Positions 23,794 through 53,088 are shown, numbered from the stretch's first letter. The stretch: DNA of 64,000 nucleotides from Candidatus Latescibacterota bacterium (GCA_965215195.1 CBDCDC010000001.1:576001-640000), one strand, 5' to 3'. Translations and numbers: made by a program. The notes: generated by a model from the sequence alone, not told the origin.

Positions 23794-24486
23794 TCAGGTG
23801 TTTTCAACGGATTCACTTGCTGTAGCGATCTCACCAGTCTGAGGGTCAAGCGTAATTTTTACCAAGCCCTGAGACTCTGGATCGCGGATCGCACGCCGCT
23901 TAAAAACTGGCAGGTTGGAACCATTCCCCCGGCGTGCGGAAGGAACGGCCAAACCGTCCAATTCCAACCGGACTGCTGCCGCGCCAATCCGATTACAGAA
24001 CGTGTAGTCAGTATCATGCACCAATTCCGGCCATTCGCTCCGCTTGTCGCGGAGGTCCTTTTCCTCGCCTTCAAACAAACAGGTAAAACGCTGATAGTAG
24101 GCACTGCGTCGACCTTGGGGACGACCTCCAAAACCCTTACTGAACCAATGCGCGGCTTCCGCCTCGGATGTCACAGGATCGAGGGCGCTGTAAAAGACGG
24201 GATAGGAGCCATCCGAATACCTCGTCGCCCTGATCAGGTGGCATTTCGGACGAAATGGCGCATCGCAGAGATCTTCAAGGGAAGTTCTGTAGCCAGCAGC
24301 TACGAGTAGATCTCTCATTTCCCGTTCGCCAAGTGCATCCAATCTCAACTCTGCAAGGAACTCGTCATCCCAATCCAAGGTGGCCAATCGGTATATCCGC
24401 CGAAGGTTGCGTGTGGTAGGAATCTCGTCAAGCAGGTTGTCAACCGATTGGCGGGATTCCCGTACGTCATCGTCCTGCGGCGGCAT
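23794..24486 (-). CDS. RES-domain toxin (NAD+ phosphorylase-like)
   Basis: R (TRYSDGS), YSALD, E (SEAE), S (VPSARR) RES residues. Confidence 0.82.
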   Translation of the reverse strand: MPPQDDDVRESRQSVDNLLDEIPTTRNLRRIYRLATLDWDDEFLAELRLDALGEREMRDLLVAAGYRTSLEDLCDAPFRPKCHLIRATRYSDGSYPVFYSALDPVTSEAEAAHWFSKGFGGRPQGRRSAYYQRFTCLFEGEEKDLRDKRSEWPELVHDTDYTFCNRIGAAAVRLELDGLAVPSARRGNGSNLPVFKRRAIRDPESQGLVKITLDPQTGEIATASESVENT

Positions 24487-25102
24487 CCACGTACTCCTTC
24501 ACCAAAAGAAGGTCTTCCATGGAGCCGCCCAACAGCAACTTCAACGGCTCTCGCTCATCCAGCAAAGTGTGCGGTTCGCGCAGCCATTCGTTTTCGACAT
24601 CCAGATCGCGAAAGAGCGATGCCAGCGTCTGCCTGATGTGGAAAAGATGGGCAATCCGATCGCGAACGTCTCGGCCGTGCAAGTCGGCAGTTCCTGCCAG
24701 AACAGCTCGCACGAGATTGTTGTCGGTCTGATCGAATCCCAGCAGGAGGACTGCATCGCCTCTACTCAAGCGCCAACTCTCAAGCAATTTTAAGACAAAC
24801 TGAACCGGTCCGCTGACCCGATTCGGCGCAAAGGCAAGCGATCGCCAACTCACAACGTCGAGACCGATCTCTGAAGAGTGACCTGCGGTAAGTCCCAAAT
24901 TCAGTTCATACGCAGACGAACCGCTAGCGAAGGATGAAAAGGCAGGTTTCGGATTTCGCTGATAAAGGTAGATCGCATGTAAGGCACGGGGATTGTCGGA
25001 ACCGATTTGTGACGGCCCAGTGTAGCCGGACCTCGACATCAAAAGGGAGTCCTCAGCACCTTCTTTAGGAGTTGATCCTAGCACTTCTGTTACAGTCGTC
25101 AT
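24467..25102 (-). CDS. Xre/MbcA/ParS-type antitoxin with long N-terminal extension
   Basis: C-terminal LFRDLDVENEWLREPHTLLDEREPLKLLLGGS motif; overlaps the RES gene. Confidence 0.78.
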   Translation of the reverse strand: MTTVTEVLGSTPKEGAEDSLLMSRSGYTGPSQIGSDNPRALHAIYLYQRNPKPAFSSFASGSSAYELNLGLTAGHSSEIGLDVVSWRSLAFAPNRVSGPVQFVLKLLESWRLSRGDAVLLLGFDQTDNNLVRAVLAGTADLHGRDVRDRIAHLFHIRQTLASLFRDLDVENEWLREPHTLLDEREPLKLLLGGSMEDLLLVKEYVDAAAGR

Positions 25103-34224: not shown

Positions 34225-34716
34225 TCATCCTTCCCGAGAATCGCTGCCCAGTTCCTCGTCGAATAGCCGTTTGGCTTGGGTAGCGGCCCATTGCTCGCAG
34301 GCGTGTGCTGCTTGGGTGGTCGGCTCGCGAACATCCGGGGGGACAGAAAGACCGAGTTTGCCAAGCGCGACTTCCACCGCTTTTTGGAGTTGTTGTTGCT
34401 CCCATCGCCATGCGTCGGAATCGAGATACAGAATCGGCATGGCCAGTACTTCCTCTTGGCCAGCGAGCAGCTTCTGCAAGACAGCCCGCGATGCCCCACG
34501 ACGGTTGCGTTCGAGCCCAAGCTCGTAGCAGAGCATCTCATCGCGGTAGGTCTCCACCCGCTGTTGGACGAAGGAGCATTGCTCTGGGGAGGGGGGATGG
34601 CTTATGAGATCTGGGGTTGGCGTACTAGTGCTACGACGCCTATAGCAATAGTATATAGCGCCGCCTGCAATGAGCGCAGTACCGGCGGCCAAAATCACGA
34701 GACTCGTCGTATTCAT
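34225..34716 (-). CDS. Hypothetical protein with N-terminal TM anchor, last gene of the dynamin operon
   Basis: LVILAAGTALIAGGAIYY followed by a helical domain; start abuts the upstream stop. Confidence 0.7.
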   Translation of the reverse strand: MNTTSLVILAAGTALIAGGAIYYCYRRRSTSTPTPDLISHPPSPEQCSFVQQRVETYRDEMLCYELGLERNRRGASRAVLQKLLAGQEEVLAMPILYLDSDAWRWEQQQLQKAVEVALGKLGLSVPPDVREPTTQAAHACEQWAATQAKRLFDEELGSDSREG

Positions 34717-36705
34717 TTAGGCACTCCTCGCTGGTTCATATTCAGCTTTAAGTAGTTCTACTTGCAGTTTTCGCCGATCCAATTCCACAAGCTGATCGTC
34801 AATCTCTTGCCGCTTGTCCTCATCCGACGAAATTGTTTCTTGCAACTCTTCTAACACCTTCTGCTTCTTTTCGAGAATGTACTGACACCTCCCTTCCATT
34901 GTCCTAAGAGCCTCTTGTCCGTGATTATTCAACTCTCTACCAATGTGATCAGAGAGTTTGTCAAGCTCCTTTTGCAGAAGCGACTCAAGGTCAGAGTCCA
35001 ACTTCTTAACAGCATCATCTTTGCCTGCCTGCGTATCCCAAACCCTCTGCCACCAAGTAGTTGCAGCTTTCACAGTGTCCTGCAGAGTCTCAAAATTAAG
35101 AGCGATTTCCAGTTCCGCTTCTACACGCTTACAAATGGTATTAGCCGAGATCGGCAGTAAATGATACTGTGATCCCTGATCAAAGGAGAATCCACTTGCC
35201 AACAATTTCTCTGAGAGATCATTCTCTGTCTGATTGAGCGTGTCTTCGATTGTACGCACAATATCCCTGATAGCTTGTGCGAGAACGTTGCGATGCTTAT
35301 ATAGATGGTTCCCAATACCCATCGCCATTCCTGCCATATTAGCGATTTTCTTCACACTGCGAAGGTCGTCTTTGATCCCTTGCAAAACCTTACTAATCGT
35401 TTTATTGATGCTCTCTTGCAGGGGCCCTTGTGCTTCGTCAAGACTCTTCTCGAAATGCTTCCTCGCGTTCCTGACAACTGAAGCTATCGAAACAATGTTT
35501 GTTCTTATCCGAGCGAGTTCTTCGTTGCGCTCTTCTTGCGATGCGTTAATAGCATCGAGATTAGTCGTCAATATCGCCTTGTCTTGAGAGATGCCTACAG
35601 CGGCATTTTCAAAGACGCTGTCCAAACGCCTTTGATGTGCCTCGATAATACTATCGCCTTTGGTGGAGATGATTCGTTGTTCAATGACATTGCGAAGTCG
35701 TTCCATACCGTGCTGCTCCGGCTCCAGATAGCCCTTGCCGTCTAGCTCCCTTTCATACCATGTTAAATCATCGGACAGGGGGCGGCCTGCTTCCTGCATG
35801 GCAGCAATAAGCCCACCGAGGCTGCTGACGAGTACAATCTGGTCGTCATCTCCAAACAGTGCCTTCATCCTCAGGTCGTCACTATCCCGGATCTTCCGAA
35901 TGTGACTCCAAATGGCCTCTTTGTTGGGTTGACTGTCGCACTTGTTCACCGCGATGATGCGCCGCTGGGGATTGATGTGTGCCAAGTACTCGTCGATAAA
36001 TTTCACGTCCGAACCAGTCATGCCGGCTTGCCCGGCAAAAGTAACGTACACCACAGCGTCGGCCCGCTCAATCCACTCGCGAGTGATTTTGTCGCGCACC
36101 GGGTTCGGATCATTGGTTCCGGGGGTATCGGCTACGGTCACCTGATGCAGCCACGGACGATCCGCCCATAATCGCACAGAGTTGACATACGCACTGTATG
36201 TGCCCCCGCGGCTACATATCGCCGCAAACTGGTGCAGCTTATCGAGACCGTCCTCGGAAATGACGCGAGCCGGGTTGGTGAGCAGGTCGGATTCCTTGAG
36301 CCCTTCCGCACGAGCAGTTTCTCGCGCCTCAGCCAGTTCCTGCGCGGAGCGTTCATCTTGCTTGCTTCCTTCCTTCACTTGGTTAAACTCGTCACACGTG
36401 TACAGGGTGGCCTCAACTCGCTCTGCTTCACTTTCACTCCCTTCCATGAGTGCGATCTTGGCCGTCATGGTCGTAACGTGACTCGGTAGTATCTCCTCCG
36501 AGAAAAGCAGGGCGTTGAGCAGAGTCGATTTCCCGCTGTTCATCTCGCCACATACTGCCACGACGAAGCGACCTTCTTGTAGGTTGGATTTTGCCTCCTG
36601 AAGTGCCTCCACGTCTGCCGTTAGCAATTCATGGTTTTCAACGACGCGGTCGTACCACTCACAGATAGTCGCTTGGTACTTTTGGTACGCTTGGAAGTTT
36701 TTCAT
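34717..36705 (-). CDS. Bacterial dynamin-like GTPase (third)
   Basis: G1 GEMNSGKST, G3 DTPG, G4 NKCD, long helical/coiled-coil C-terminus. Confidence 0.9.
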   Translation of the reverse strand: MKNFQAYQKYQATICEWYDRVVENHELLTADVEALQEAKSNLQEGRFVVAVCGEMNSGKSTLLNALLFSEEILPSHVTTMTAKIALMEGSESEAERVEATLYTCDEFNQVKEGSKQDERSAQELAEARETARAEGLKESDLLTNPARVISEDGLDKLHQFAAICSRGGTYSAYVNSVRLWADRPWLHQVTVADTPGTNDPNPVRDKITREWIERADAVVYVTFAGQAGMTGSDVKFIDEYLAHINPQRRIIAVNKCDSQPNKEAIWSHIRKIRDSDDLRMKALFGDDDQIVLVSSLGGLIAAMQEAGRPLSDDLTWYERELDGKGYLEPEQHGMERLRNVIEQRIISTKGDSIIEAHQRRLDSVFENAAVGISQDKAILTTNLDAINASQEERNEELARIRTNIVSIASVVRNARKHFEKSLDEAQGPLQESINKTISKVLQGIKDDLRSVKKIANMAGMAMGIGNHLYKHRNVLAQAIRDIVRTIEDTLNQTENDLSEKLLASGFSFDQGSQYHLLPISANTICKRVEAELEIALNFETLQDTVKAATTWWQRVWDTQAGKDDAVKKLDSDLESLLQKELDKLSDHIGRELNNHGQEALRTMEGRCQYILEKKQKVLEELQETISSDEDKRQEIDDQLVELDRRKLQVELLKAEYEPARSA

Positions 36706-38660
36706 CAGAATGTATGCTCCTTCATTTTATTGATCCGTTCTTGGAGTCTGCTCAATTCTTCGGTTTTTTTCGCAACCTCCACTTCACTTCTTTCTGTGGT
36801 GCTGATGACGGCTCCCTTCAGTCCATCTATCACCTCCTGAATAACCAGAACACTGATGTTGTCTCCCCGAGACGCAAAATATTCGATTATACGTTCCAAG
36901 TGCTGGTCTCTAGAAACTTCGGCCTCATATTCGTACTGCCAGAATTTCCCTTTCCCTCTCTTTCTTTTTTTATGCTGCGTCCATTCATTTTCTTGAAAAG
37001 ATTGTACTGTTTCTTGAACTGCTTTGCGAATCAGATCGAGAAAATTTTCCTTCAGATGCTCAACAGCTTGTTGAGGCGTGAAGTCGAAGTTGATATCAAG
37101 AGATCGTTTTAAGTATGAAAGTAGCCCTTGATATATTCCATATATACGATGCCAATTATCGTGCTTATCCATTACGTCAGGTGCTATGTCTAAGTAAACG
37201 CGAACTTGATAATATACAGTATCCGAAAAAAACCCCTCTTCAGTGCGTTTGTTTTTGGTAGTTATTTCAATAGGTATATCTGAAAAAATCTCGTTGACAA
37301 GCTTAAGCGTATCGTACTTCGCTTTTTCGATAGCTTCAAGTGCGGTCTCTTGGCGTCTAGTTTCATCACCACCATCACCTTCTCCGGCAGACCCACTTAG
37401 TGCTTTCTCTAAATCAGAAAGCGTCGTTTGCCAGTCCTCTCGCAGTTGCAAGGTGTTGCGCTCAAATTGCTGTTCAAGCAAGACGTGTCGTTCTGCAGAC
37501 ACCTGCTTCACCATCTCGGCAAGTTGTTTGCGGGACGCCAGTCCCGAATTCGATGAGACGGGCACATCGTACACGTTGCCGCTGATATCGAGTCGGTAAC
37601 TCTGTATCGTCCGTTTGGCCGAGATATTTTCTCGAAATGACTGGCGCTCCTCGTATGCAGATCGCATACGCTGCATGGCGATGTCCAGCGGGTCAAGCAA
37701 TGCCTCATCTTCGGCTTCACTCAACTGCAACGCAGAGACAAGCACGACATCGCGAAAACGTTCGTCGTGTAACTCTTCGCATACACGCTTCACTTCGGTA
37801 CGTTGTGATGGCGGCAATCCTTCAGCCTTGTTGAGCAAGAGAAATACGGGTTGACGAGACTCATTGGTCGAATTTTGCGAAATCCGATCTAATTGGTCCA
37901 ACAGCGTATTTGATGGATTCCCCTTATTGGCATCCGTAAGTACGAACAGCACGTCCGATCCCTTGACTGCTTCTTCGGTCACTCTGGTATCATTCACATT
38001 TGGAGGTGGGGCATTAAACCCAGGCGTATCGACAAGCCGAATATGATCAAGAACCGGAGAATTTACCGCAATGCGAAAGGTATTCGGCTCGCTGTCGCCT
38101 TCTTTTTTATGCTGAGCCAACGCACGATACTTCGATTTATCCAGAGCGATCCACGTTCCGTCCGCCAATCCCTGCTCAAAACGTTCCTCGCCGCCATGGA
38201 CGAAGTGCGTTACGGATGCGGTCGTTGGTTCATCGCCAACCGGGCACATATCCATTTCCAAGAGTGCATTGATGAACGTCGATTTACCCGCATTAAAGTC
38301 GCCGACCACCGAGACGGTCAAACGACCGATACCGTCTCGATGCTCTCGTTGCTCAGCAAGGTGGTCAGTCAGGCTCCTCTCCAAGGAATCCAACTTATGC
38401 TCGAGCTCGCCGGTCAAAAGATTGAGTTCAGCATCTGCAAACTGATCTCGAACGGACCGCAAGGCGAGGAGACACTCAATCGTCTCGTTGAGCTCTGTCC
38501 CATCCGATCTCGCATTGGAGGCGACAAAGCCCTGCTTATCAGCAGATCGGGCTTTGGCTTTGGCCTTGGGTTTGGCCTTGGCCTTGGGCTTGGCTTTGGG
38601 CTTGGCTTTGGCTTTGACTTTGGCTTTGGCCTTGACTTTGGCTTTGGGCTTGGGCTTCAT
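36705..38660 (-). CDS. Bacterial dynamin-like GTPase (second) with Lys/Ala/Pro-rich N-terminal tail
   Basis: G1 GDFNAGKST, PTTA, DTPG, NKAE; N-terminus MKPKPKAKVKAKAK... Confidence 0.9.
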   Translation of the reverse strand: MKPKPKAKVKAKAKVKAKAKPKAKPKAKAKPKAKAKARSADKQGFVASNARSDGTELNETIECLLALRSVRDQFADAELNLLTGELEHKLDSLERSLTDHLAEQREHRDGIGRLTVSVVGDFNAGKSTFINALLEMDMCPVGDEPTTASVTHFVHGGEERFEQGLADGTWIALDKSKYRALAQHKKEGDSEPNTFRIAVNSPVLDHIRLVDTPGFNAPPPNVNDTRVTEEAVKGSDVLFVLTDANKGNPSNTLLDQLDRISQNSTNESRQPVFLLLNKAEGLPPSQRTEVKRVCEELHDERFRDVVLVSALQLSEAEDEALLDPLDIAMQRMRSAYEERQSFRENISAKRTIQSYRLDISGNVYDVPVSSNSGLASRKQLAEMVKQVSAERHVLLEQQFERNTLQLREDWQTTLSDLEKALSGSAGEGDGGDETRRQETALEAIEKAKYDTLKLVNEIFSDIPIEITTKNKRTEEGFFSDTVYYQVRVYLDIAPDVMDKHDNWHRIYGIYQGLLSYLKRSLDINFDFTPQQAVEHLKENFLDLIRKAVQETVQSFQENEWTQHKKRKRGKGKFWQYEYEAEVSRDQHLERIIEYFASRGDNISVLVIQEVIDGLKGAVISTTERSEVEVAKKTEELSRLQERINKMKEHTF

Positions 38661-40375
38661 GCCTGACCAACCTTTCGGAGCCGGGCGATATCGGCGTCGA
38701 TGCGCGACACCTTGTCGGTGCGATCTTTGAGATCGTCTCGCCGCTCTTCTTCAAGCTGAGACAGCGTACTCTGTACTTCTTCAAGCTCGTGCTCTAGAGG
38801 TTGAAATAGTTCAGACTCAAAGTATGCCTCGATATTCCGCATCGCTTGCGTCGAAAATTCCTGGCGGATACGAGCCATTGGCTCGGCGAGGCGCTTGTTT
38901 TTCCACCACTCCCCCACAAAGTCGCTGGCGATGTTGGCCGGATTAATCTCATGCAAGGTGGTAAGAATCCTTCTTCCTACGCTCTTGAGCCCTTCGGAGG
39001 TTGCGACTTTTACCGCTGTTTCGGTCCCTGCCTTGGCCGCCGTTTTGGCGGCGGCGGCCCGCAATGCCGCACCGCCGGTCGCCTCCCCGGCCGTGGCAGC
39101 CAAACCAGCAGCGGGACTTATCGCGGTAAACAGGGCTGCCGTAGCCAAGGTGGCTCCCAAGCTCACAATTTTGTCAGTGTCTTTCAGTAAGGTCTCGATC
39201 TCCGTCATGTCAATCCCTGCGTCATGGAGATCCAGTTGTTGTCCCAGCTTAGCAAAGTGATTTCTAACCGTTGTTGCGAGTGCAGCGGTGAACTCGCCAC
39301 TGACCTGTTCTATGGCGAGATCGTCCGACGTAGCGGCGAAGCGCACCTGATATTGGTCGCATATTGCCCGCGCTTCCCGGCTAAGATCGTTGCGCACCTG
39401 ATCGAGACGTTGCTGGTGCTGATGTAGCTCTCGGTCCAGTCTCTTGCGTTGCTCATCCACATTTTTCTTACGCAACGCAAAATCTTCTTTCGACTCTAGC
39501 AAGCCACCGCGCATCTGCTCAAGCAGTGATATGGTACGCGGCACCAAGCGCACACTAGCCCGGTGTTGTCGTTCGGCCATAAGGGACGCCTTGCGACCTT
39601 CAAACACCTCTTGGATGGCGGTGCGTAAAGCACTGACGTCACGCACGGCCGCCTCTGGGCCAGCCCTGACGACCACAATGCGGCCCTCAGCTTCTGATTT
39701 CGCGCAGCCGATAGTCTGTGCCAGCGTGTCGGTAGTCTTCTCGGCTACCGTCGTATGCTCATGATCTGGAAGTTGGTCGGCAAATGTGAGCGCAATGAGA
39801 AAGCGATGCTGTAGGTGGCGGACGCCGGGAGAAGTGAGAAAGTCGGTGACGGTACTCGTCAAGCCGCCCTTGCGAATATCCATACAAATCACAGCGGCAT
39901 CTACGAAGGGGAGCTCGCCCAATGTGATTTCCGTGTGTTCCTCAATGAGGGTCGATAGTCCCGGCGTGTCGAGGAATACGAATCCTGCTGGAAACCCGGG
40001 ACGGGACGGTAGGCGGACGAGCGGACGTCCCGGCGTGTGCCCGCGGGCGAGATCATCGAAATCGGGGCGGTTGATTGCCGTCTGCGCACCCTCGTCGTCC
40101 ACGCGAAAATAGGCCGGCTCTTCAAGAGAAGGCACTGAAACCACCTGTCCGGCCCGCGCTGTACAGGGCTCAACCTGCGCGGGCATGAGATCTTCCATGC
40201 CTACCAACTCATTGATCAGCGTACTTTTACCACTGCTGAAGTCCCCCAGAAAGCCTATCTGCACCGCGTCATCGCTCGTAAGGCTCTGGATATCGTCGGC
40301 CAATATGTCCAAGTCCCACCGCGAGGCTACCTCGCGCAGTGTCTCCAATGCCGTTGAGCCACGTTGTTCTGTCAT
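38657..40375 (-). CDS. Bacterial dynamin-like GTPase (first) with hydrophobic paddle-like segment
   Basis: G1 GDFSSGKST, PCTA, DTPG, TFAD; Ala-rich hydrophobic segment; RBS AGGAG upstream of MTEQRG. Confidence 0.9.
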   Translation of the reverse strand: MTEQRGSTALETLREVASRWDLDILADDIQSLTSDDAVQIGFLGDFSSGKSTLINELVGMEDLMPAQVEPCTARAGQVVSVPSLEEPAYFRVDDEGAQTAINRPDFDDLARGHTPGRPLVRLPSRPGFPAGFVFLDTPGLSTLIEEHTEITLGELPFVDAAVICMDIRKGGLTSTVTDFLTSPGVRHLQHRFLIALTFADQLPDHEHTTVAEKTTDTLAQTIGCAKSEAEGRIVVVRAGPEAAVRDVSALRTAIQEVFEGRKASLMAERQHRASVRLVPRTISLLEQMRGGLLESKEDFALRKKNVDEQRKRLDRELHQHQQRLDQVRNDLSREARAICDQYQVRFAATSDDLAIEQVSGEFTAALATTVRNHFAKLGQQLDLHDAGIDMTEIETLLKDTDKIVSLGATLATAALFTAISPAAGLAATAGEATGGAALRAAAAKTAAKAGTETAVKVATSEGLKSVGRRILTTLHEINPANIASDFVGEWWKNKRLAEPMARIRQEFSTQAMRNIEAYFESELFQPLEHELEEVQSTLSQLEEERRDDLKDRTDKVSRIDADIARLRKVGQA

Positions 40376-40424
40376 CGTATTCCGTATTCTCCTGTTTGAT
40401 CCACCAATGGGCATAAGAATGCAG

Positions 40425-40503
40425 CGACCCAGCAGGGTGCCGGGCCATGTAGCCATCTCACAGGTTTTTCGGAGAAGTTCTGCCTATTCGCCGGGCTTCA
40501 GGG
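40425..40503. repeat. ~80-bp dispersed repeat, copy 1 (upstream of the dynamin operon)
   Basis: CGACCC.GCAGGGTGCCGGGCCA...ATCTCACAGGTTTTT...AGTTCTGCCTATTCGCCGGGCTTCAGGG shared with 45000-45079. Confidence 0.9.
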
Positions 40504-40619
40504 AATGGGCTTTCTCTCGCGGACAGAAAACACCTTGTGCGTTTCCCGTTCAAAACCCGCAAAGTGGTCTATAATAAGTTTTAAGAGCGTTTCTAAAGCT
40601 CAGAACAAGTCTTAATCTA

Positions 40620-40817
40620 CTAGGAAAAGACTGCAATCAACAAGACAAACAATACGAGGATGATTACAGACGCTATGGTTATACAACCCACTGCTTGGTT
40701 GATTCCTTTTGCACTCTCCTCGACGAATCCTTTAGCCTCTCTTTTTCCTCGAAAAATTCGCAGGTACACCGCTCGAATCCCTACGATAAGGACTACAAAG
40801 AGCAAGACTTCCACCAT
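40620..40817 (-). CDS. Small two-TM membrane protein
   Basis: 65 aa, two hydrophobic helices, RBS GAGG. Confidence 0.6.
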   Translation of the reverse strand: MVEVLLFVVLIVGIRAVYLRIFRGKREAKGFVEESAKGINQAVGCITIASVIILVLFVLLIAVFS

Positions 40818-40867
40818 AGCTATACCTCTCTGGTTTTTTGGCCCTGATTGAGGCGTAAAGTCAGTTA

Positions 40868-41695
40868 TTAAAACACTTCGCCCACCATCAGCTTATAGAA
40901 CCGAGATTCCACGGCTCGCAAACGATCCTGATAGAGCTTTTTATCCGTTGGGCCAGTTGAATCAAAAACTCGCACGAAAAATCGGCATTTTTTCGATTTA
41001 GACCACTCAAACAATTCAGATGTTGCAGAGAGAAAAGACTGTTCCGGTATATCTTGATCCAAGACGATATTTTGAATGGGTAGCATCTGCCGTTCATCCG
41101 CTCGATGCGGTAGATTGGTTGCCCGGACGATCAGACCAGTGGGTGTTAGATTCACATCGTATATGTACTCAATAGTTCCATCGTCGAGCGTCCAGCAGGA
41201 CGGAACTTCGGTGCCTTTGCCTGCTGAGTATTCCCGCACCAACTCCAACAGCTTCTCTACATTCCTCTCGCCATCCGGTAGAAGCTCCCGAACGGTTGAG
41301 TACTCACGTCCCAATTCTAGCGTATTTACTATGGTTTCCGGTTCTGACAAGAATCCGGCCGCTTCTGCAGTACTCTGAAGCCTTGTAAGCTGTTGCTTGG
41401 CATCGCGGAGAAGTACTAGTTCCCGCTGCAATTCCTCGATATTCTTATCACCACTGGGCAATATCTCTTGAATAGCAGAAAACTGCTCCTCAAGTTGCTC
41501 CTCAAGTAGGGTGATTGTTTCTTGGCGTTCCTCTGCTACTCGCTCGGCTTCCTTCTGCTTGTCTTGTTGGCGCACCAACAAGGCGGCAAAGGCGAGCAGC
41601 AGAACGAAGATGATAAGAATGGCGATCTCAGCCATGGTGAGGCCGAGGATGAGACCTTGCCGATAGGCAGAGGTCTGCTTTTCAAGATTTGCCAT
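40868..41695 (-). CDS. ExbD/TolR/MotB-like single-pass protein with coiled-coil stalk
   Basis: N-terminal TM LTMAEIAILIIFVLLLAF with an intramembrane acidic residue; coiled coil; C-terminal alpha/beta domain with two Cys. Confidence 0.6.
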   Translation of the reverse strand: MANLEKQTSAYRQGLILGLTMAEIAILIIFVLLLAFAALLVRQQDKQKEAERVAEERQETITLLEEQLEEQFSAIQEILPSGDKNIEELQRELVLLRDAKQQLTRLQSTAEAAGFLSEPETIVNTLELGREYSTVRELLPDGERNVEKLLELVREYSAGKGTEVPSCWTLDDGTIEYIYDVNLTPTGLIVRATNLPHRADERQMLPIQNIVLDQDIPEQSFLSATSELFEWSKSKKCRFFVRVFDSTGPTDKKLYQDRLRAVESRFYKLMVGEVF

Positions 41696-42713
41696 CTTGA
41701 CGGGCTAGCCATGCTCCAAAACGGGCTAGCCATGCCCTAAAATGCGAGGAACTAGCGTGTAGTTCTTGTTTGTTCATGCTTGTCTCTGGGGATAGTATTT
41801 CTTTTGGAATCTGCACATTGTTGAGTCGGTTGGCGAGATTTTCTCCGGCCTTGCTGATTTGTTCAGCTCCGATTTCAAGGCTCTGTATGGAGGGACGTAG
41901 AAGTTGTTCAAGGAGGTCTTCGGGCACTTGCAAGTGGTTGATTTTATCAACGAGGTCGCTCGCGGCCACTGACTCCGAAACGGCTTGTATCGCACCTACG
42001 CTAGCAGACACTGCGTCCGAACTGGCTTTTAATGCACTGTCGAGATTCGACACTTGTGCGTTGAGATCGGATACGGTATTGACGAAACTATCGAGGTTGA
42101 CCTGCAACTGCTCGCGACTTTCTTCAACGGTTTTGGTGAAGTGAGTAACTGATGCCTCGAACTGAGAAATAGCTTTCTCTTGTCTGTCGCGGCTCTCTCT
42201 GAGAATTTGCGCTAGCTCTGTTCTAAAGTTTGAAAACTCTCCTAATTCACCCTTGAGTGTAGATATTCTCTCTCTGAGATCGGATACCGCATTGCCGAGA
42301 TCGGATACCGCATTGCCGAAATTGGATACCTTTTCTTTTTGGGCTTCGCCTTCTTCGGATTGGTTAAAAAAGACCCGGAAAAAGATGCCAAATATCGTCG
42401 AAGCGATAGAGATGCCGAAGTTCGTAATGATCTGGGTAATTTTTCCGATAGATTCGTCAATGAGGGAAAATTCAAAAAGCGATACCCCCAAGCTGACGAG
42501 GGTATATAAAAATCCAAGGTAATAGAGGTTATCGCCAGCTTTACCGCGCAGGGATTGCGGCTTGCTGCCATACGTTACTGCATAGACCAACATAATCGCA
42601 ACAGGAAAGGCGGTTACGAAAAACTGATTCACATGGTGTTGCTTGAGAATTATGATCCCCACTGCTCCTATCAAGAAGCAGAAAAAAAGAAATGTTGGAC
42701 TTAGTTTATTCAT
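41682..42713 (-). CDS. MotA/TolQ/ExbB/ZorA-like membrane protein with long coiled-coil tail
   Basis: YYLGFLYTLVSLGVSL...FGISIASTIFGIFFRV matches the proton-channel TM hairpin pattern; heptad-rich C-terminus. Confidence 0.65.
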   Translation of the reverse strand: MNKLSPTFLFFCFLIGAVGIIILKQHHVNQFFVTAFPVAIMLVYAVTYGSKPQSLRGKAGDNLYYLGFLYTLVSLGVSLFEFSLIDESIGKITQIITNFGISIASTIFGIFFRVFFNQSEEGEAQKEKVSNFGNAVSDLGNAVSDLRERISTLKGELGEFSNFRTELAQILRESRDRQEKAISQFEASVTHFTKTVEESREQLQVNLDSFVNTVSDLNAQVSNLDSALKASSDAVSASVGAIQAVSESVAASDLVDKINHLQVPEDLLEQLLRPSIQSLEIGAEQISKAGENLANRLNNVQIPKEILSPETSMNKQELHASSSHFRAWLARFGAWLARQDGKS

Positions 42714-43507
42714 CAGTCATTCATCCCGGAGGTTCTAAGTACGCGTACTACTTGGCCTCCGTGCTGCGAGAGCCAAGACTGGAAGAATTTCAAGAGGGGG
42801 CCGCCATCTCCCTGCTGCCATTGCCGTCTCTGAACGAGCCATAGCTCTATATCGACGCCGCGCAGATCAGGGTTTAGACCGCGAGATTCATGGGTGTGCT
42901 GGAAGCGGCTGAAATCGGGCGGCTCTCGATAGAACGAACATGCGTCGCTGTTTTGTAGAAGGTCTGAAATAATGATGAGACGCCGCGGGACATTGCGACG
43001 TTTGGTATCTTGAAAATGCGTTAGAGAAACCGACTGCACGGACTCCATAATTGGCGACGATGGTGCTTCCTTTTCGTCGAGCAGGGTTTGCAGCACTTCT
43101 TCCAGAGGCTGCCGGAACTTCTGCTGCCAGTTTCGACGAACTATTGCTTGGGATTGGATTAGCGGATCGACGTTTTCTGGATCGCCGGGATTGCAAACCT
43201 TAATGATCGGCTCAAGGCCATGTTCGTGCGTGGATTCCACCGTAAAAAGACTGATTTCGTGATTTTCTTTGACCGTACCTAACAGGTTCTGGATCTGAAC
43301 CTTCAGATCGTCCTTGGTCTGAGCACCAAAGGAATCGGTGCGATCGAGTAGAAAGGCCGTAATCGAATATGGCCCTTCGGTTCTGCAAAGGGTTACGGGA
43401 TCGCGGATGATAGGCTCGGGTTTTAATAATACAAGAGCAACCACAGCCCCTACACCTAGGACGATCATCCCCCCACCTGCGATGTAGTATAGTAGCTTTA
43501 ACGACAT
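42713..43507 (-). CDS. Membrane-anchored vWA-domain protein
   Basis: N-terminal TM; MIDAS-like FLLDRTDS, SPIMES, LIIISDLLQN. Confidence 0.72.
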   Translation of the reverse strand: MSLKLLYYIAGGGMIVLGVGAVVALVLLKPEPIIRDPVTLCRTEGPYSITAFLLDRTDSFGAQTKDDLKVQIQNLLGTVKENHEISLFTVESTHEHGLEPIIKVCNPGDPENVDPLIQSQAIVRRNWQQKFRQPLEEVLQTLLDEKEAPSSPIMESVQSVSLTHFQDTKRRNVPRRLIIISDLLQNSDACSFYREPPDFSRFQHTHESRGLNPDLRGVDIELWLVQRRQWQQGDGGPLLKFFQSWLSQHGGQVVRVLRTSGMND

Positions 43508-43552
43508 GCCAGTTCTTTCCGCTTGTTTTTTGTCTCGGAGTTGGTAACTGGG

Positions 43553-44938
43553 CTATTCAGTTGGCGTTGGTAGGCGGTGCGGGGCCAATCTCCGCAAATC
43601 CCTACGGAGAACATCGTACTCTTTTTGCAACTCCTGTTCGCCGTTATTAACGTCTGTTGTCGCCTTAGAAATGATCTCTAAAATTTCTTCGCGTTTCAGC
43701 AATTCCTCCGGCAAGGTATCGTCTATTGGCGATAGTTCTTCCATTTCCCACTTATCATTGAAGCGAGCAGGTGCTTCTCCTCCTCGTCTCGCACGGTTGA
43801 CCTCTCGGTAGCGCTTGAGCAAATCGTTTCCTGCCCGCTCCAAGTGGTTGAGGTAATCCTCATACGATTTGATAACGTGCCTATGTCCGTCTAAGATAGA
43901 AGCGCGTTCCCTTTCCGAGCCCAAGAGTCCTTGCTTGATGCTATTTAGCTTTCCGACGGCTTCATTAAATATCGCTTTTAGTTCTTTTTCGTGATTGTCA
44001 TAAGCATCTTTGTATTTTTTATATTCACCATCTTTACCATGATAGCGAAAGAACACCTTGCTATAACCGGGGTAGGGATCGCCAGCCCATTTTATGCCAT
44101 CGATAAAGCTAATGATTGCAAACAGGAAACCCATGCAGAACAGCATCCACGACTGGAAGTCCCTTAGCCCCAATGGATTCTCGCGAAAAGCGGACATGGC
44201 GAGCTGCCCGCCTTCGTCGAGCATGGTCCCCGTTATTTCTCGATAGTGTGCAACCATTAGGTTAAAGAAGAATGCAAAGAGTATAAATGCAGTTGCAGCG
44301 AGGATGCCCGCAGACTTTCTACTCCACTCAACATGGTAACAGTTGGTAATGATCCGCCCGAGTAAGAAAGCGATGCCGAGATTGGCAAACGAAATAACAA
44401 CAGCCTCAGTATAGGCACCGAATAGGCCCAGTTCGTTGCCCTTTGCCAGAAAGGATGCGTTGCCCAAGGTCTCAATGAGAAAGAGCACGGCGATAATACC
44501 TGCAAGAAATATATTGTATCCATCGCCGTGCTTACTCGCCTCGCGACTCAGGTTATTCCTGTTCTGAAAATTAGTCAAGCGATCTTCTGCTTTTTTTAGC
44601 GGACTTTGCTTTGCTCGCAAATCCGTAGCAGCACTTTCAGCCTTCTCCTTGAGCTTTGCTTTACCATGGCGAACTTCGCCACCAATAGAGTGCTTGCGGA
44701 ATTCCGGGTCGAGGTCGATAAGACGCTTGCGGTATGAAGCTAATTCTTCATCGGCTCTATCCTTTACGTTTGACTGATATTCTTCGATCCGCCCGACAAT
44801 CTCGGTTTCGGTGTTATCGAGGTCTGTACTGTCTAGCGAAGGCAATCCTTGTTTCGCTGCTTCTTCAGCTTCTTCTACTATATGCACATTCTCTACTATC
44901 TTATCTATCTCGATTTTCTTAAACAGGTCAGTTGACAT
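43553..44938 (-). CDS. Hypothetical multi-pass (about 4 TM) membrane protein flanked by long coiled coils
   Basis: Central hydrophobic helices, DPYPGY motif, charged helical N- and C-termini. Confidence 0.8.
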   Translation of the reverse strand: MSTDLFKKIEIDKIVENVHIVEEAEEAAKQGLPSLDSTDLDNTETEIVGRIEEYQSNVKDRADEELASYRKRLIDLDPEFRKHSIGGEVRHGKAKLKEKAESAATDLRAKQSPLKKAEDRLTNFQNRNNLSREASKHGDGYNIFLAGIIAVLFLIETLGNASFLAKGNELGLFGAYTEAVVISFANLGIAFLLGRIITNCYHVEWSRKSAGILAATAFILFAFFFNLMVAHYREITGTMLDEGGQLAMSAFRENPLGLRDFQSWMLFCMGFLFAIISFIDGIKWAGDPYPGYSKVFFRYHGKDGEYKKYKDAYDNHEKELKAIFNEAVGKLNSIKQGLLGSERERASILDGHRHVIKSYEDYLNHLERAGNDLLKRYREVNRARRGGEAPARFNDKWEMEELSPIDDTLPEELLKREEILEIISKATTDVNNGEQELQKEYDVLRRDLRRLAPHRLPTPTE

Positions 44939-44999
44939 CGCATGGTCCTCCGCATGGGTTTACTTAACTACCTAGTAGCGTCGTACATTAAAGATGAGA

Positions 45000-45079
45000 C
45001 GACCCCGCAGGGTGCCGGGCCAAGTGTATATCTCACAGGTTTTTTTAGAACAGTTCTGCCTATTCGCCGGGCTTCAGGG
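45000..45079. repeat. ~80-bp dispersed repeat, copy 2 (upstream of the vWA/stator-like operon)
   Basis: Near-identical to 40425-40503, same orientation, similar distance from the operon's first ATG. Confidence 0.9.
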
Positions 45080-45125
45080 CGTGTGCAGGAATGGGTGAAA
45101 GCGAATCCACGATATATTTTCCGGG

Positions 45126-45698
45126 CTACCAACCGCAGTAGTGCAGGACCTTACCAGCCAGTTCCGTAACCCCTTTCAAGGGCACCTCGGCCATCACAAA
45201 GTCGCCATCCCACTTCGACATAACGCTGATGATCATACGGTCATAGAGCAAAAAGGGGGCGATCATGTCAGAATGAAGGCCCAAGAGGGTAGCCTTAGGT
45301 ATAGTCCACTGTTGGGACCCCTCCGTTTCGTACATACGACGCTCCTGTTGCCCCGTCTTGGGAAAGCCAATCACGACCGGGTAGTAGTCTAGTGGGCCAA
45401 CACGGCGTCTATTGGTTGAAAACTGGGGTGCCTTGTCAAAATCCAAAGACAGGGCGAGGCTTGTTGTCGGGTGGTCAGGATTGCAAGACAACATCACGGT
45501 CATCCGAGTCTTTATCCGATTCTTTAGCCAGTCTTCATGCTCTATGATGCGGACCGGGATGCCTTTTATCTGGACAACATAGTATTCGTTGTCTGTTTGG
45601 TCATCTCGGCCATGGGCTAAGTGCCAACCCGTCTGCGCAAGGGCCTCGGTGGGGCAGACGCCAAGCACAACGAGGACGATAATGCGTCCGTAGGACAT
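45126..45698 (-). CDS. Hypothetical secreted protein
   Basis: Signal peptide ending EALA-Q; beta-rich mature part ending CGW. Confidence 0.65.
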   Translation of the reverse strand: MSYGRIIVLVVLGVCPTEALAQTGWHLAHGRDDQTDNEYYVVQIKGIPVRIIEHEDWLKNRIKTRMTVMLSCNPDHPTTSLALSLDFDKAPQFSTNRRRVGPLDYYPVVIGFPKTGQQERRMYETEGSQQWTIPKATLLGLHSDMIAPFLLYDRMIISVMSKWDGDFVMAEVPLKGVTELAGKVLHYCGW

Positions 45699-50706: not shown

Positions 50707-53088
50707 CTATTTGCGCTCGGCGATTTTGCAGACCCAGATACTGATCTCGTAGAGCAGGAGCAGGGGTAGGGCCATGAGGAGCTGGGAGACCGGGTCGGGC
50801 GGCGTGAAGATCGCGCCGAGGACGAAGATGCCGATGATGGCATAGCGGCGGATGTGGCGCATCCGCGCGGCCGTCAGCACCCCGACTTTGGCCAAAAAGA
50901 GCGACAGCACGGGCATCTCAAAGACAATGCCAAAGCCAGCGATCAGCCGCAGGACAAAGCCGATGTACTCGTCGGCCGCCCATTGCGAGGTCATGTCGGG
51001 CGGCTCTAACGCGAGGAAAAAGCGCAGCCCGAGCGGGAGGACGATGTAATAAGCGAGCAGCGCGCCGACCGAGAAGCAGAGGACGCTCAGCGAGATAATG
51101 GGCAGCATGAGCCGTTTCTCGCGCTGCAAAAGCCCCGGGGCCACAAAGCACCAAGCTTGGTAGAAGATGGCCGGCAGCGCGAGCAGCAACCCGCCGACAA
51201 AGGCGATTTGCAGGCTGATGAAGAAGTAGGTCATGGGTCGCAGGGCTTGCAGCCGGCGCGCCGGGGGTAACTCGGCGCCTGGCGCATTCGGCTCCGGCAC
51301 AGCGTCGGGCTGGCCCAACCACTCGCTCACCAGCTTTTTGACCGCCCGCACCGCGCCCGAGGATTGCTGGCCCTCCAAGCTGAGGACGGCTTCTTCGTAT
51401 GGCCGGGTCAAGATCTGCACGATTGAGTCGGAGAGGGCGAAGCAGATCACCGCACCCACGGCGAGCGCGCCTAGGGCCTTGAGAATGCGCCAGCGAAGTT
51501 CTTCGAGGTGGTCGAGAAAGGGCATGTTGTCTGCTACGCGGTCCGTTACCGCTGGCTCGCGGGCGGGTCGCGGCTTGCGGAAACGGGCGGCGAGGGCGGC
51601 GAGGGCGATCAGCAGGCAGCCATAGGCGAAGAAGTCGCCGTGCCGAGTGTAGAAGGTCGCGGGCTGGCCGACCGGCACGGTGGCGACCGCGACCGCGGGC
51701 GTGAAGAGATCGGTCGCCTCGTAGGTGCGGCCAAACGGGTCGATGAACAGGGAGATGCCGGTGGTGGCAGCGCGAGCGATGGCCGTGCGGTTTTCAACGG
51801 CGCGCATGGCGTTGATGAGCGCGTGTTGGTAGGGCCCCGCGCTGCGGCCAAACCACGAGTCATTGGTGATGTTGACCAGTACGTGCGCCCCGGCCGCCAC
51901 GTGCTGGCGGACCAGATCGGGAAAAATGGACTCAAAGCAGATGAGCACGGCAAAGGGATGCCGGGGATGGGCAAAAACGGCGTGCTCGGTGCCGCGCGCG
52001 AATTCGGCCGGGCCGAGGTCGCCGGTCAGGCGGGTCCAGTCGATGTCGCGCAGCAGGGGGATGGCGTCTCGGTAGGGAGTCCGCTCGCCAAAGGGCACTA
52101 AGTGCATCTTGGCGTACGAGGGTAGGGCTGCGGCCCCGGGCTGGACGAAGAAGGCCGCGTTGTAGTTCGCGTGTGGTGCGCCGGTCAGCAAGGGAATGTC
52201 CAGTTCCTCGACGAGCGCTTGGACGCGGCCTCGGCAACCGGACCGGCGCACAGGATCGCACGGCAGGGCGGTTTCGGGCCAGACCAGCAGCTCGGGATCG
52301 CGCTTGGCCGCTTGGCGCGAGAGCGCGGCGAGGGCTGTGAAACTGCGCTCCAGCCCGTTGGGGCCCCACTTGTCGGCGTACGTGGTGTTCGGCTGTATCA
52401 GGCCGATGCGCAGGCCCTCGGCCGGGACGGCTGACGCCAGCGCACTCTGAGCGTGGAGCCAAGGCAAGAGATAGCCCAAGGCAACGCCCGCGAGGAAGAC
52501 GCGCCGTTCGACGAGCGCCAAGTAGAACAGGGCGTTGAGGCCGACGACCCAGCAGGAGACGCCAAAGACGCCGGTCCAAGTGGCGTACTGGATGAAGTGG
52601 GGCAGGGCTGCTTGGCTGTGCCCCAGCAAGAGCCAGGGAAACCCCAACTCCCCGAGGGAGAGCAGGTATTCCTGCCCGGTCCACAACAAAGGCAGCAGGG
52701 CGAGCGCCTTCGCGCCCCACCGCGCGGCGAGCGCGCTGAACAGCCCGATACAGAGGCCGGTAAAAAGGCCCAGATAAGCGGCCATCAGCCCGGTGCCCCC
52801 GACGACAGCGACCCCCCCACCTTGGGTATAGGCCACCCAGTACAGGGACAGCAGGTTCCAGACTAAGCCGCTGACCCAACCCGCGGCAAAGCCGGCTTTG
52901 AAGCCGCGGCTGTGCAGCGCGAGCAGTAAAGGCACCAGCGCACAATGGGCCCAGAGTGGATGATAGAGAAAGGCGAGGGGGTGAGCAGGGTGGCTGGGAA
53001 AGGCCAGCGCGAGCAAGGCCCCGCTCAGTGCGGCGAGCAGTAGGCGGTAAAGCGGGGTTGGGGCCAGAACAAAGCGCGGATTAGACAT
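50707..53088 (-). CDS. lnt-tatC: Fused apolipoprotein N-acyltransferase (Lnt) / twin-arginine translocase TatC
   Basis: Lnt: GFPW, WPETA, KMHLVPFGE, LICFES, NDSWFG, RAVEN; TatC: MPFLDHLEELR, FVAPGL..EKR, FEMP, TPPDPVSQ; one uninterrupted frame. Confidence 0.9.
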   Translation of the reverse strand: MSNPRFVLAPTPLYRLLLAALSGALLALAFPSHPAHPLAFLYHPLWAHCALVPLLLALHSRGFKAGFAAGWVSGLVWNLLSLYWVAYTQGGGVAVVGGTGLMAAYLGLFTGLCIGLFSALAARWGAKALALLPLLWTGQEYLLSLGELGFPWLLLGHSQAALPHFIQYATWTGVFGVSCWVVGLNALFYLALVERRVFLAGVALGYLLPWLHAQSALASAVPAEGLRIGLIQPNTTYADKWGPNGLERSFTALAALSRQAAKRDPELLVWPETALPCDPVRRSGCRGRVQALVEELDIPLLTGAPHANYNAAFFVQPGAAALPSYAKMHLVPFGERTPYRDAIPLLRDIDWTRLTGDLGPAEFARGTEHAVFAHPRHPFAVLICFESIFPDLVRQHVAAGAHVLVNITNDSWFGRSAGPYQHALINAMRAVENRTAIARAATTGISLFIDPFGRTYEATDLFTPAVAVATVPVGQPATFYTRHGDFFAYGCLLIALAALAARFRKPRPAREPAVTDRVADNMPFLDHLEELRWRILKALGALAVGAVICFALSDSIVQILTRPYEEAVLSLEGQQSSGAVRAVKKLVSEWLGQPDAVPEPNAPGAELPPARRLQALRPMTYFFISLQIAFVGGLLLALPAIFYQAWCFVAPGLLQREKRLMLPIISLSVLCFSVGALLAYYIVLPLGLRFFLALEPPDMTSQWAADEYIGFVLRLIAGFGIVFEMPVLSLFLAKVGVLTAARMRHIRRYAIIGIFVLGAIFTPPDPVSQLLMALPLLLLYEISIWVCKIAERK

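Follow-up and report, generated by a model that had tools for sequence, protein, structure and literature searches.

A conserved four-gene membrane cassette that encodes a putative ion motor with a glutamate-bearing central subunit and a vWA-fold partner

Introduction

Can an ion motor of the MotAB/ExbBD/TolQR/ZorAB superfamily be built around a glutamate, and what might such a motor do when its genes stand beside those of a vWA-fold protein and a four-helix coiled-coil protein? This question is raised by four adjacent genes, here named g1, g2, A and B, in a 64,000-nucleotide stretch of DNA from Candidatus Latescibacterota bacterium (GCA_965215195.1 CBDCDC010000001.1:576001-640000; the window, to which all positions refer unless another locus is named). 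Flagella, the import of nutrients, the upkeep of the envelope, gliding and Zorya immunity all depend on motors of this superfamily, the known central subunits of which all use aspartate. A first-pass annotation, made from the sequence alone, had read positions 40620-44938 as a Zorya-like but OmpA-less stator module with a vWA partner, and had proposed that it represents a new motor family.

The comparisons described here indicate that g1, g2, A and B are one conserved, horizontally mobile membrane cassette, the gene order of which is fixed across phyla. Judged by their sequences, A and B very probably belong to the ion-motor superfamily. In the literature searches, no description of a g1-g2-A-B cassette was found.

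Results

Four membrane-protein genes in a fixed order

The open reading frames (ORFs) of g1 (43553-44938, 461 aa), g2 (42713-43507, 264 aa), A (41682-42713, 343 aa) and B (40868-41695, 275 aa) all lie on the minus strand; g2 and A overlap by 1 bp, and A and B by 14 bp. Hydropathy analysis gives four helices for g1, one N-terminal helix for g2, one helix for B, and three clear helices plus a weaker fourth for A. The coordinates and strings quoted for A and B in the first-pass annotation were both present in the ORFs and their translations. The cassette lies inside a low-GC (guanine plus cytosine) island, in which the GC content is 0.48-0.56 over 34-46 kb of the window, compared with 0.62-0.65 in the flanks, and which is bordered by purL and a PhyH-family gene.

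When species genomes were scanned with the membrane profile of A, 66 loci were obtained, and all of their ORFs were searched by iterated hidden Markov models (HMMs) with the ten local proteins of the window. Relatives of g1 were found in 60 of these loci, of g2 in 61, of A in 65 and of B in 60, with g1 directly upstream of g2. The proposed four-gene synteny was borne out across many phyla: the strict order g1>g2>A>B occurs in 51 of the 66 loci, and the same order with a split or extra copy in five. The other loci hold g1>g2>A with B not found (three), A>B only (three), A only (two), g1>g2 only (one) or g2>A>B only (one), and several of the incomplete patterns come from contigs of 3-6 kb. As for a recurring fifth partner, no family among the 891 flanking ORFs is present in more than five of the 66 loci. 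This synteny, taken by itself, makes it highly likely that the four proteins act as one machine.

The closest locus, from Latescibacterota, shows 74% identity. By their titles, the loci come from Latescibacterota, several Acidobacteriota orders, Alpha-, Beta- and Gammaproteobacteria, Nitrospirales, Dehalococcoidia, Saccharibacteria, Cytophagales, Spartobacteria, Desulfogranum, Bdellovibrionales and Binatia. A homologue search at E ≤ 0.001 returned 200 relatives of A and 160 of B, the names of which, where given, are 'hypothetical' or spurious ones borrowed from coiled-coil proteins. In a profile search of 1.84 billion representatives, the family comprised 2,441 clusters (50% identity) at E ≤ 0.001 and 1,635 at E ≤ 1e-10.

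Subunit A resembles the ring subunits of ion motors

The conserved part of A is its N-terminal 116 residues. The protein carries LGFLYTLVSLGVSL and FGISIASTIFGI, followed by a 227-residue helical tail (residues 117-343). In the minus-strand translation, helices 3 and 4 read GDNLYYLGFLYT71LVS and NFGISIAST106IFG, respectively, and the fourth helix (approximately residues 96-114) has a weaker hydropathy than the other three. The residues G60, D61, N62, Y64, Y65, G67, T71, L72, F99, G100, T106, G109 and R113 are invariant in the family alignments. The N-terminus, the loop between helices 2 and 3, and the tail are probably cytoplasmic, because this loop of about 20 residues is K/R-rich and would obey the positive-inside rule. 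A thus appears to possess the helix hairpin with a conserved Thr on each helix and the following cytoplasmic C-terminus that are features of MotA, ExbB, TolQ and ZorA.

The Pfam family PF01618 (MotA_ExbB) was matched at E ≤ 1 by 35 of 47 A N-terminal segments (best E 0.0017), the runner-up family being matched by eight of the 47, and in an earlier, smaller scan PF01618 was matched by 6 of 12 A members. It does not appear in the Pfam listings for g1 (37 members), g2 (40) and B (33). In addition, an HMM of the A membrane part, built from 133 sequences, matched E. coli TolQ with an E of 0.0074 over three targets, in an alignment that places YLGfLyT71 with YIGLFGT145, and NFGiAiasT106ivG with PGIAEALIAT178AIG. 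The register against ExbB was the same (T148, T181), with a score that was not significant. The spacing of the hydroxyl residues is 35 in A (T71/T106), 33 in ExbB and TolQ, and 37 in ZorA (T147/S184; PMC11946911). Atlas feature leads, with scores of 0.81 and 0.89, led to clusters in which 13% of the members carry PF01618, the 0.89 cluster being named MotA/TolQ/ExbB. These results indicate that A is a remote relative of MotA, ExbB and TolQ.

The tail of A matches many coiled-coil models, including the ZorA tail (PADLOC E 2.1e-6; PDB 8qyd_A E 2.4e-6). Because unrelated coiled coils score better, the likeness of the two tails is taken to be compositional.

Subunit B carries an invariant glutamate at the start of its helix

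B has a short N-terminus, followed by a helix at the beginning of which Glu23 stands, a helical stalk that reaches about residue 157, and an alpha/beta domain (161-275). It contains LTMAEIAIL, Glu23 lies inside the only hydrophobic helix, and the two Cys are C167 and C237. A22, E23, L27, I28, F30, L32 and L33 are invariant in the helix, as are C167, C237, R238, F239 and D245 in the C-terminal domain. A motif with either D or E at the acidic position matched 140 of 182 B-family sequences, and the residue was Glu in all 140 motif-readable sequences, so that the conservation of Glu among homologues, on which the first-pass proposal had depended, was observed.

In a comparison anchored on the acid, B reads E-IAILIIFVLLLAFAALLV, ExbD reads D25-VMLVLLIIFMVAAPLATV and TolR reads D23-VLLVLLLIFMATAPIITQ, with D32 of MotB also compared; the pattern of B, an acid and then 18 hydrophobic residues, is the same in ExbD and TolR. 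The helix and the position of the acid therefore match those of the conserved aspartate of MotB, ExbD, TolR and ZorB, whereas the residue itself is Glu. The two PADLOC ZorB1 models were matched by 8 of 33 and 6 of 33 B members, with a best E of 2.7e-6. These results indicate that B is a protein with a single predicted helix, at the cytoplasmic start of which stands an invariant carboxylate that is always Glu.

For the remainder of B, an AlphaFold2 (AF2) model computed with 33 sequences shows a single long helix from the membrane to about residue 78, then low-confidence helices that reach about residue 157, and finally a C-terminal domain with the order beta-beta-alpha-alpha-beta-alpha-beta, for which the predicted local distance difference test score (pLDDT) is 88-98. 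In a Foldseek search of the PDB with this model, there was no match at E ≤ 0.001, the best being ribosomal uS11 (E 0.015-0.1), and no ExbD, TolR or OmpA-like chain was among the matches listed. An HMM of the C-terminal domain gave E 0.25-0.5 against E. coli ExbD and TolR, and the ExbD, MotB_plug and OmpA models are absent among the Pfam families listed for the 33 B members. These Foldseek and Pfam results agree with the absence of an OmpA domain from the B protein of the window and do not support the ExbD-like strand and helix order that had been suggested for it. The C-terminal domain is probably periplasmic, given C167 and C237, by the same reasoning as for g2 below.

A second form of B on plasmids and in other genomes

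A tblastn search with the B proteins of the window and of L019, one of the 66 loci, found no match in plasmids and phages. With g2 of L019, tblastn detected relatives in 24 plasmid records (Rhizobium 12, Paracoccus 6, Sinorhizobium 3, Microvirga 2, Tistrella 1), 11 of which are typed conjugative. Two of these plasmids were inspected, namely pRL11 of Rhizobium johnstonii 3841 (L070) and a Paracoccus yeei plasmid (L071). Both carry four genes in the cassette order, the fourth of which (8952-9926 in L070 and 8781-9821 in L071) is called 'OmpA family protein' in RefSeq. The HMMs of g1, g2, A and the N-terminal helix region of B matched the respective pRL11 proteins with E of 3e-154, 8e-72, 7e-84 and 2.6e-20, and the HMM of the B cysteine domain gave no match (E 0.26). 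The Glu is kept in both variant B proteins, as LTMAE and LTVAE.

Among the 61 B ORFs in the 66 loci, 53 carry the cysteine domain, six (L010, L017, L022, L038, L042 and L060) carry the pRL11-type C-terminal domain (E 1e-36 to 1e-56), and two carry neither. The description 'OmpA-less' therefore fits the 53 B genes with the cysteine domain, but not the six with a domain that plasmid records name OmpA family. The variant B of Paracoccus aligned weakly with E. coli Pal in the GH...NxxLSxxRA region (E 0.0065 over four targets), that of pRL11 gave no significant match to Pal, and phmmer searches of the PDB with variant B found nothing; the OmpA assignment is thus based mainly on the record annotation. 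If this annotation holds, the combination of a carboxylate helix, a stalk and an OmpA-like head would be the architecture of MotB and ZorB, and would be the strongest independent pointer to the superfamily membership of B.

g2 is predicted to be a membrane-anchored vWA-fold protein

The g2 protein consists of an N-terminal membrane anchor (helix 9-27) and a vWA-fold domain. Its AF2 model, computed with 40 sequences, has a pLDDT of 93 and a predicted TM-score of 0.87, and Foldseek returned 234 matches at E ≤ 0.001 (best from 5e-6, probability 1.0), the top rows of which are all vWA-type, including the Sec23/24 trunk, BatA/BatB-type proteins, the VWF A3 domain, integrin I domains and Rpn10. At the sequence level, g2 of the window has no Pfam, PADLOC or NCBIfam match; among 40 g2 members searched against Pfam at E ≤ 1, no family was matched by more than one member and no VWA model was matched. 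PDB sequence-profile searches gave coiled-coil noise or nothing. The model confidently places g2 among membrane-anchored proteins of the vWA fold.

Three conserved groups of residues occupy MIDAS-like positions: D55-x-[TS]57-D58 immediately follows strand 1, S181-D182 follows strand 4, and S151-P152..E155 stands where a helix begins. The third Ser of the canonical DxSxS motif is not conserved, and the site is therefore called MIDAS-like (after the metal ion-dependent adhesion site) rather than MIDAS. Hence, the vWA fold and the 1-bp overlap attributed to a membrane-anchored MIDAS vWA partner were both recovered, whereas the motif is D-x-[TS]-D and not DxSxS. The domain is probably periplasmic, as judged from the single helix and basic N-terminus of g2 and from the invariant Cys pair C41 and C105. 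Helix 9-27 contains no His and no acid, and there is no conserved column before C41.

g1 is an orphan four-helix coiled-coil protein

The four hydrophobic helices of g1 (143-161, 175-193, 212-230 and 264-282) are flanked by helical/coiled-coil regions of about 140 residues on the N-terminal and about 180 residues on the C-terminal side, which the charge pattern places in the cytoplasm. These four helices agree with the four-helix coiled-coil protein that had been noted upstream. E156, N186, N226, H231, R233, G270 and D287 are invariant in an alignment of 37 members. Searches of Pfam, PADLOC and the PDB found no relative of g1, which is thus an orphan family. The idea that g1 is a second stator-like protein was rejected, as hhalign gave a probability of <1% against A, against ExbB/TolQ/MotA and against the B helix.

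Comparison with known systems

The cassette resembles ZorAB in that the hairpin of A is followed by a long cytoplasmic helical tail, B has one carboxylate helix and a cysteine-bearing periplasmic domain, and the setting is accessory or island-borne. PADLOC gave no match for g1 and g2 and, for A and B, only weak matches to the ZorA tail and the ZorB helix. Unlike ZorAB, however, the tail of A has 227 residues compared with about 500 (70 nm) in ZorA, A lacks a membrane-proximal cytoplasmic domain, its 2-3 loop being about 20 residues, and the residue in B is Glu in place of Asp26 of ZorB, an aspartate that the Zorya paper calls 'universally conserved' (PMC11946911). Most B proteins also lack a peptidoglycan-binding domain. 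In place of ZorC/D/E/F/G, the partners are the vWA and four-helix proteins, and no other conserved neighbour corresponding to the Zorya set (ZorC/D, and ZorE or ZorF/G) was found in the 66 loci. 'Zorya-like' is therefore apt for the architecture, but not for the partners.

For ExbBD-TonB and TolQRA, the hairpin of A shows its best sequence likeness to TolQ/ExbB, B shares the acid followed by 18 hydrophobic residues, and an additional membrane-anchored periplasmic partner is encoded alongside. In contrast, a TonB/TolA-like partner is lacking, the four helices of A come with a very short cytoplasmic loop and an extended tail, and B combines a long stalk with an unrelated head and Glu for Asp. 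For MotAB, the similarities are the four-helix topology of A, the overlapping genes in the order A then B, and the OmpA-family annotation of variant B; the differences are the lack of a large cytoplasmic torque-generating loop and of a flagellar context, and Glu for Asp32. GldLM, the motor of gliding and type IX secretion, is a superfamily member with a glutamate as its key protonatable residue, which sits on the ring subunit GldL and not on the central subunit. The cassette would thus be like GldLM in the nature of the key protonatable residue and unlike it in the location of this residue, which would be on the central subunit B here. No Glu form or vWA partner is mentioned in the parts covered of a survey of MotAB relatives (PMC12505986).

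Inner-membrane-tethered vWA proteins of two families have been described beside tolQ(R)-like genes and proposed to be force transducers; their helices bear an SHLS/His motif or are themselves an Asp-bearing pore helix, and a tetratricopeptide-repeat gene co-occurs (PMC12204202). The cassette is similar in that a gene for a membrane-anchored periplasmic vWA protein adjoins a motor pair of the superfamily. It differs in that the motors described there are recognisable TolQ/TolR with Asp, whereas B is a separate protein with Glu, the g2 helix is unconserved and has neither the SHLS/His motif nor the Asp of a pore helix, and the gene for the four-helix coiled-coil protein is a fourth member. Accordingly, the claim of a new motor family with a vWA partner stands insofar as A and B appear to form a new, large family related to MotA/ExbB/ZorA and MotB/ExbD/ZorB, but the link between vWA and TolQR-like proteins had already been published (PMC12204202).

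Mobile and defence genes around the cassette

The two nearest genes on each side were scanned at 39 loci (150 of 170 ORFs), with five loci left out and 22 further loci, in which fewer than four core genes had been picked, outside the scan; the neighbour and nuclease counts that follow stand without a matched control. Within two genes of the cassette, an integrase, resolvase or transposase occurs in L009, L012, L014, L015, L019 and L048, a staphylococcal-nuclease homologue in L008, L013, L014, L019, L030 and L032, and Endonuclease I in L018 and L020. PADLOC matches at E ≤ 1e-8 occur within two genes in 11 of the 39 loci. Three of these were discounted as generic (SbcB-like in L008, PrmC-like in L055 and a cysteine desulfurase in L058), and eight were taken as real: PDC-S52 (L011), a restriction-modification control protein (L018), an Mrr-helicase (L020), type II restriction-modification (L026), ThsA (L030), SoFic-like proteins (L035 and L049) and HEC-01 (L052).

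In addition, 12 of the 66 loci hold secreted-type non-specific nucleases of the staphylococcal-nuclease or Endonuclease I family, with a hydrophobic leader at the N-terminus, at a distance of up to 10 kb (L008, L009, L013, L014, L015, L018, L019, L020, L025, L030, L032 and L036), and in pRL11 a 'thermonuclease family protein' (L070 9927-10670) directly adjoins the cassette. These nucleases may simply mark plasmid or integrative-element backbones.

An adjacent block of dynamin-like GTPases

In the window, the cassette is followed by a minus-strand block (34225-40456) of three tandem dynamin-family GTPases, at 38657-40456 (599 aa), 36705-38660 (651 aa) and 34717-36705 (662 aa), with Pfam Dynamin_N matches from 8e-10 to 1e-20, and a 163-aa single-helix membrane protein. 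PADLOC gave weak matches of the dynamin-like genes to the Eleos models LeoA (2e-19) and LeoBC (1.6e-16 and 4.4e-13). The second GTPase begins with a long K/A/P-rich repeat. Iterated HMMs and a further homology search found no relative of the three GTPases or of the 163-aa protein in the 66 loci, the search for the GTPases extending over 10 kb, and a link between the cassette and the dynamin-like genes was rejected on this count (0 of 66). The window is collinear with the Latescibacterota loci L001, L003 and L004 from about 52 kb down to the B stop codon or within a few bases of it, where the collinearity ends. The absence of the block from the 66 loci and the end of the collinearity at the B stop suggest that this block is an insertion of its own, similar to Eleos.

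Upstream of g1, at 44972-45086 on the minus strand, is a conserved element, non-coding and about 100 nt long, a second copy of which (40395-40510, minus strand) precedes the first dynamin-like gene. Copies also precede g1 in L001 (7584-7700), L003 (7638-7754) and L004 (7619-7720). Its 28-nt core occurs exactly twice in the window (0 expected by chance) and once each in L001, L003 and L004. The element has no Rfam match, and of its 26 predicted pairs a single one has changed on both sides; the element may reflect shared regulation or be a recombination scar. The start annotated for the first GTPase (MATWPG...) falls within the element, so that the true start probably lies downstream of the annotated one.

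Discussion

The low-GC island, the plasmid copies, the defence genes and the secreted nucleases suggest an accessory, envelope-sensing system, possibly for defence. We consider it reasonably likely that the core of the cassette, A and B, is a distant ion-driven motor of the MotAB/ExbBD/TolQR/ZorAB type, and that its likeliest role is in an envelope-sensing accessory system against invading phage or foreign DNA. The defence step, which draws on the analogy with Zorya and on the genomic settings, is the least certain part of this proposal.

In the mechanism that we propose, a ring of A subunits, probably five, would surround a B dimer, and ion flow via Glu23 and the ring of Thr71 and Thr106 would turn A relative to B. 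B would be held in the periplasm by its stalk and disulfide-stabilised head or, in the variant, by the OmpA-named domain, and the metal site of the g2 vWA domain would bind the B head or a ligand in the periplasm. The tail of A, which would span about 34 nm if its 227 residues formed one continuous helix, and the coiled coils of g1 would relay the signal at the cytoplasmic face, and the likely output would be g1, which has conserved polar residues in its membrane part.

Several results weigh against a defensive ion motor. For A, the protein of the window gives no match to PF01618 at E ≤ 1, and every match in the A family lies far below the curated cut-off of PF01618. Comparison by hhalign of the A membrane profile (133 sequences) with a thin profile of E. 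coli ExbB, TolQ and MotA, taken singly or aligned, gave a probability of <1% and an E of 0.16, although the best local alignment was nevertheless in the expected register; a search with E. coli ExbB yielded no deep comparison profile, all of the matches listed being enterobacterial proteins at least 85% identical. Thus, the MotA/ExbB/ZorA hairpin pattern read by the first-pass annotation persists as a hairpin with two invariant Thr and sub-threshold PF01618 matches, but not as a significant hhalign match. Profile searches of the PDB with the A membrane part found no motor chain, the sole match being 4x5m, which relies on a C-terminal 'ENLYF' string that we take to be an expression tag. A precomputed Pfam accession, PF28175.1, which is attached to the A protein of the window (P0001) and to one relative (P0041) and is absent from the Pfam copy searched, may already cover part of A. 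For B, the C-terminal domain in the window shows no match to OmpA or to ExbD/TolR, the variant domain shows, beyond the record name, one weak Pal match in favour of an OmpA fold and no phmmer match, and Glu occupies the position of the aspartate held to be universal in the Zorya work (PMC11946911). As to function, 28 of the 39 scanned loci have no PADLOC neighbour, a count that, like the other defence-gene counts, lacks a matched control, and the Zorya analogy is without an output, because no cytoplasmic effector enzyme is conserved.

The most serious competitor, although in our judgement an unlikely one, is a Tol/Ton-like envelope force transducer without an immune role, the motor of which would pull the vWA protein and the B head in envelope maintenance, adhesion or surface movement. 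The vWA proteins beside tolQ(R)-like genes (PMC12204202) would be natural precedents for it, the collinearity in L001, L003 and L004 takes in both the Latescibacterota cassette and flanking housekeeping genes of the chromosome, and the 28 loci with no PADLOC neighbour within two genes point in the same direction. However, the g2 helix is unconserved and bears neither the SHLS/His motif nor an acidic pore residue, and the patchy distribution, unrelated flanks and plasmid copies fit an accessory trait. Moreover, a machine that pulls outwards would have no use for a long tail on A and coiled coils on g1 that both lie in the cytoplasm, and, provided that the binning is correct, some of the hosts, by record title Dehalococcoidia and Saccharibacteria, may have no outer membrane.

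The same strand, the adjacency, the common low-GC island, the Eleos matches (LeoA, LeoBC) and the shared element of about 100 nt upstream of g1 and of the first dynamin-like gene would also be expected if the cassette and the three GTPases formed one larger membrane-remodelling or defence system in this window. We regard this as improbable, since GTPase relatives occur within 10 kb in none of the 66 loci and the collinearity with L001, L003 and L004, ending at or near the B stop, marks the GTPases as a separate insertion. Least probable of all in our estimate is that A and B form no motor, their likeness to motor subunits being one of composition (hydrophobic helices plus a coiled coil) and the cassette being a static membrane scaffold. 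Such a scaffold would account for the sub-threshold level of every sequence match to motor families and for the lack of significance in the hhalign comparison of A. It would leave without explanation the lead of PF01618 in A by 35 to 8 and its absence among the families listed for g1, g2 and B, the two invariant Thr and the invariant carboxylate at motor positions, the order of A then B in overlapping genes as in motAB, and the OmpA-family annotation of the variant B proteins.

If the preferred interpretation of A and B as a glutamate motor is correct, more than 2,000 sequence clusters with a glutamate central subunit would widen what such motors can be built from and coupled to. The head of B would be swapped, being in some cases a novel domain stabilised by cysteines and in others one that bears the OmpA-family annotation, with the vWA and four-helix coiled-coil proteins always alongside. 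The family also offers a direct test of whether a carboxylate longer by one carbon supports rotation. A bolder proposal, which we regard as distinctly doubtful, is that the glutamate rotary motor is a self-contained immune or exclusion device, with partners that are all membrane proteins, in which the periplasmic vWA protein detects an invader at the envelope, the motor turns and the A tail switches on g1 as the effector in the membrane, and in some hosts a secreted nuclease encoded next to the cassette helps by destroying incoming DNA before it reaches the cytoplasm. If a role in defence or exclusion is true, this would be a system with no need of a cytoplasmic enzyme.

Other features of the window

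A 65-aa ORF with two hydrophobic helices (40620-40817, minus strand), which the first-pass annotation had included in its range, has no relative in the 66 loci by phmmer and tblastn, and probably lies outside the cassette. A scan of the locus for promoters and terminators gave no signal above that of shuffled sequence. Just upstream of the cassette, a minus-strand gene (45126-45698) encodes a 190-aa protein with an N-terminal hydrophobic leader, which has no family match and, by iterated HMM, no relative in the 66 loci.

Further upstream, a single 793-aa ORF (50707-53088, minus strand) fuses the domains of apolipoprotein N-acyltransferase (LNT_N, CN_hydrolase) with a full TatC domain; the compared part of this ORF, up to 52000, is covered by tblastx blocks common to L001, L003 and L004. 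Genes of defence or toxin-antitoxin type are scattered over the window, all on the minus strand (23794-25102, 2460-4985, 8186-9088 and 19437-20660), and comprise a RES/Xre pair, an Eco57I/MmeI-type methylase-nuclease, a GmrSD_C-Excalibur protein and a Schlafen AlbA_2/HATPase_c_4 protein.

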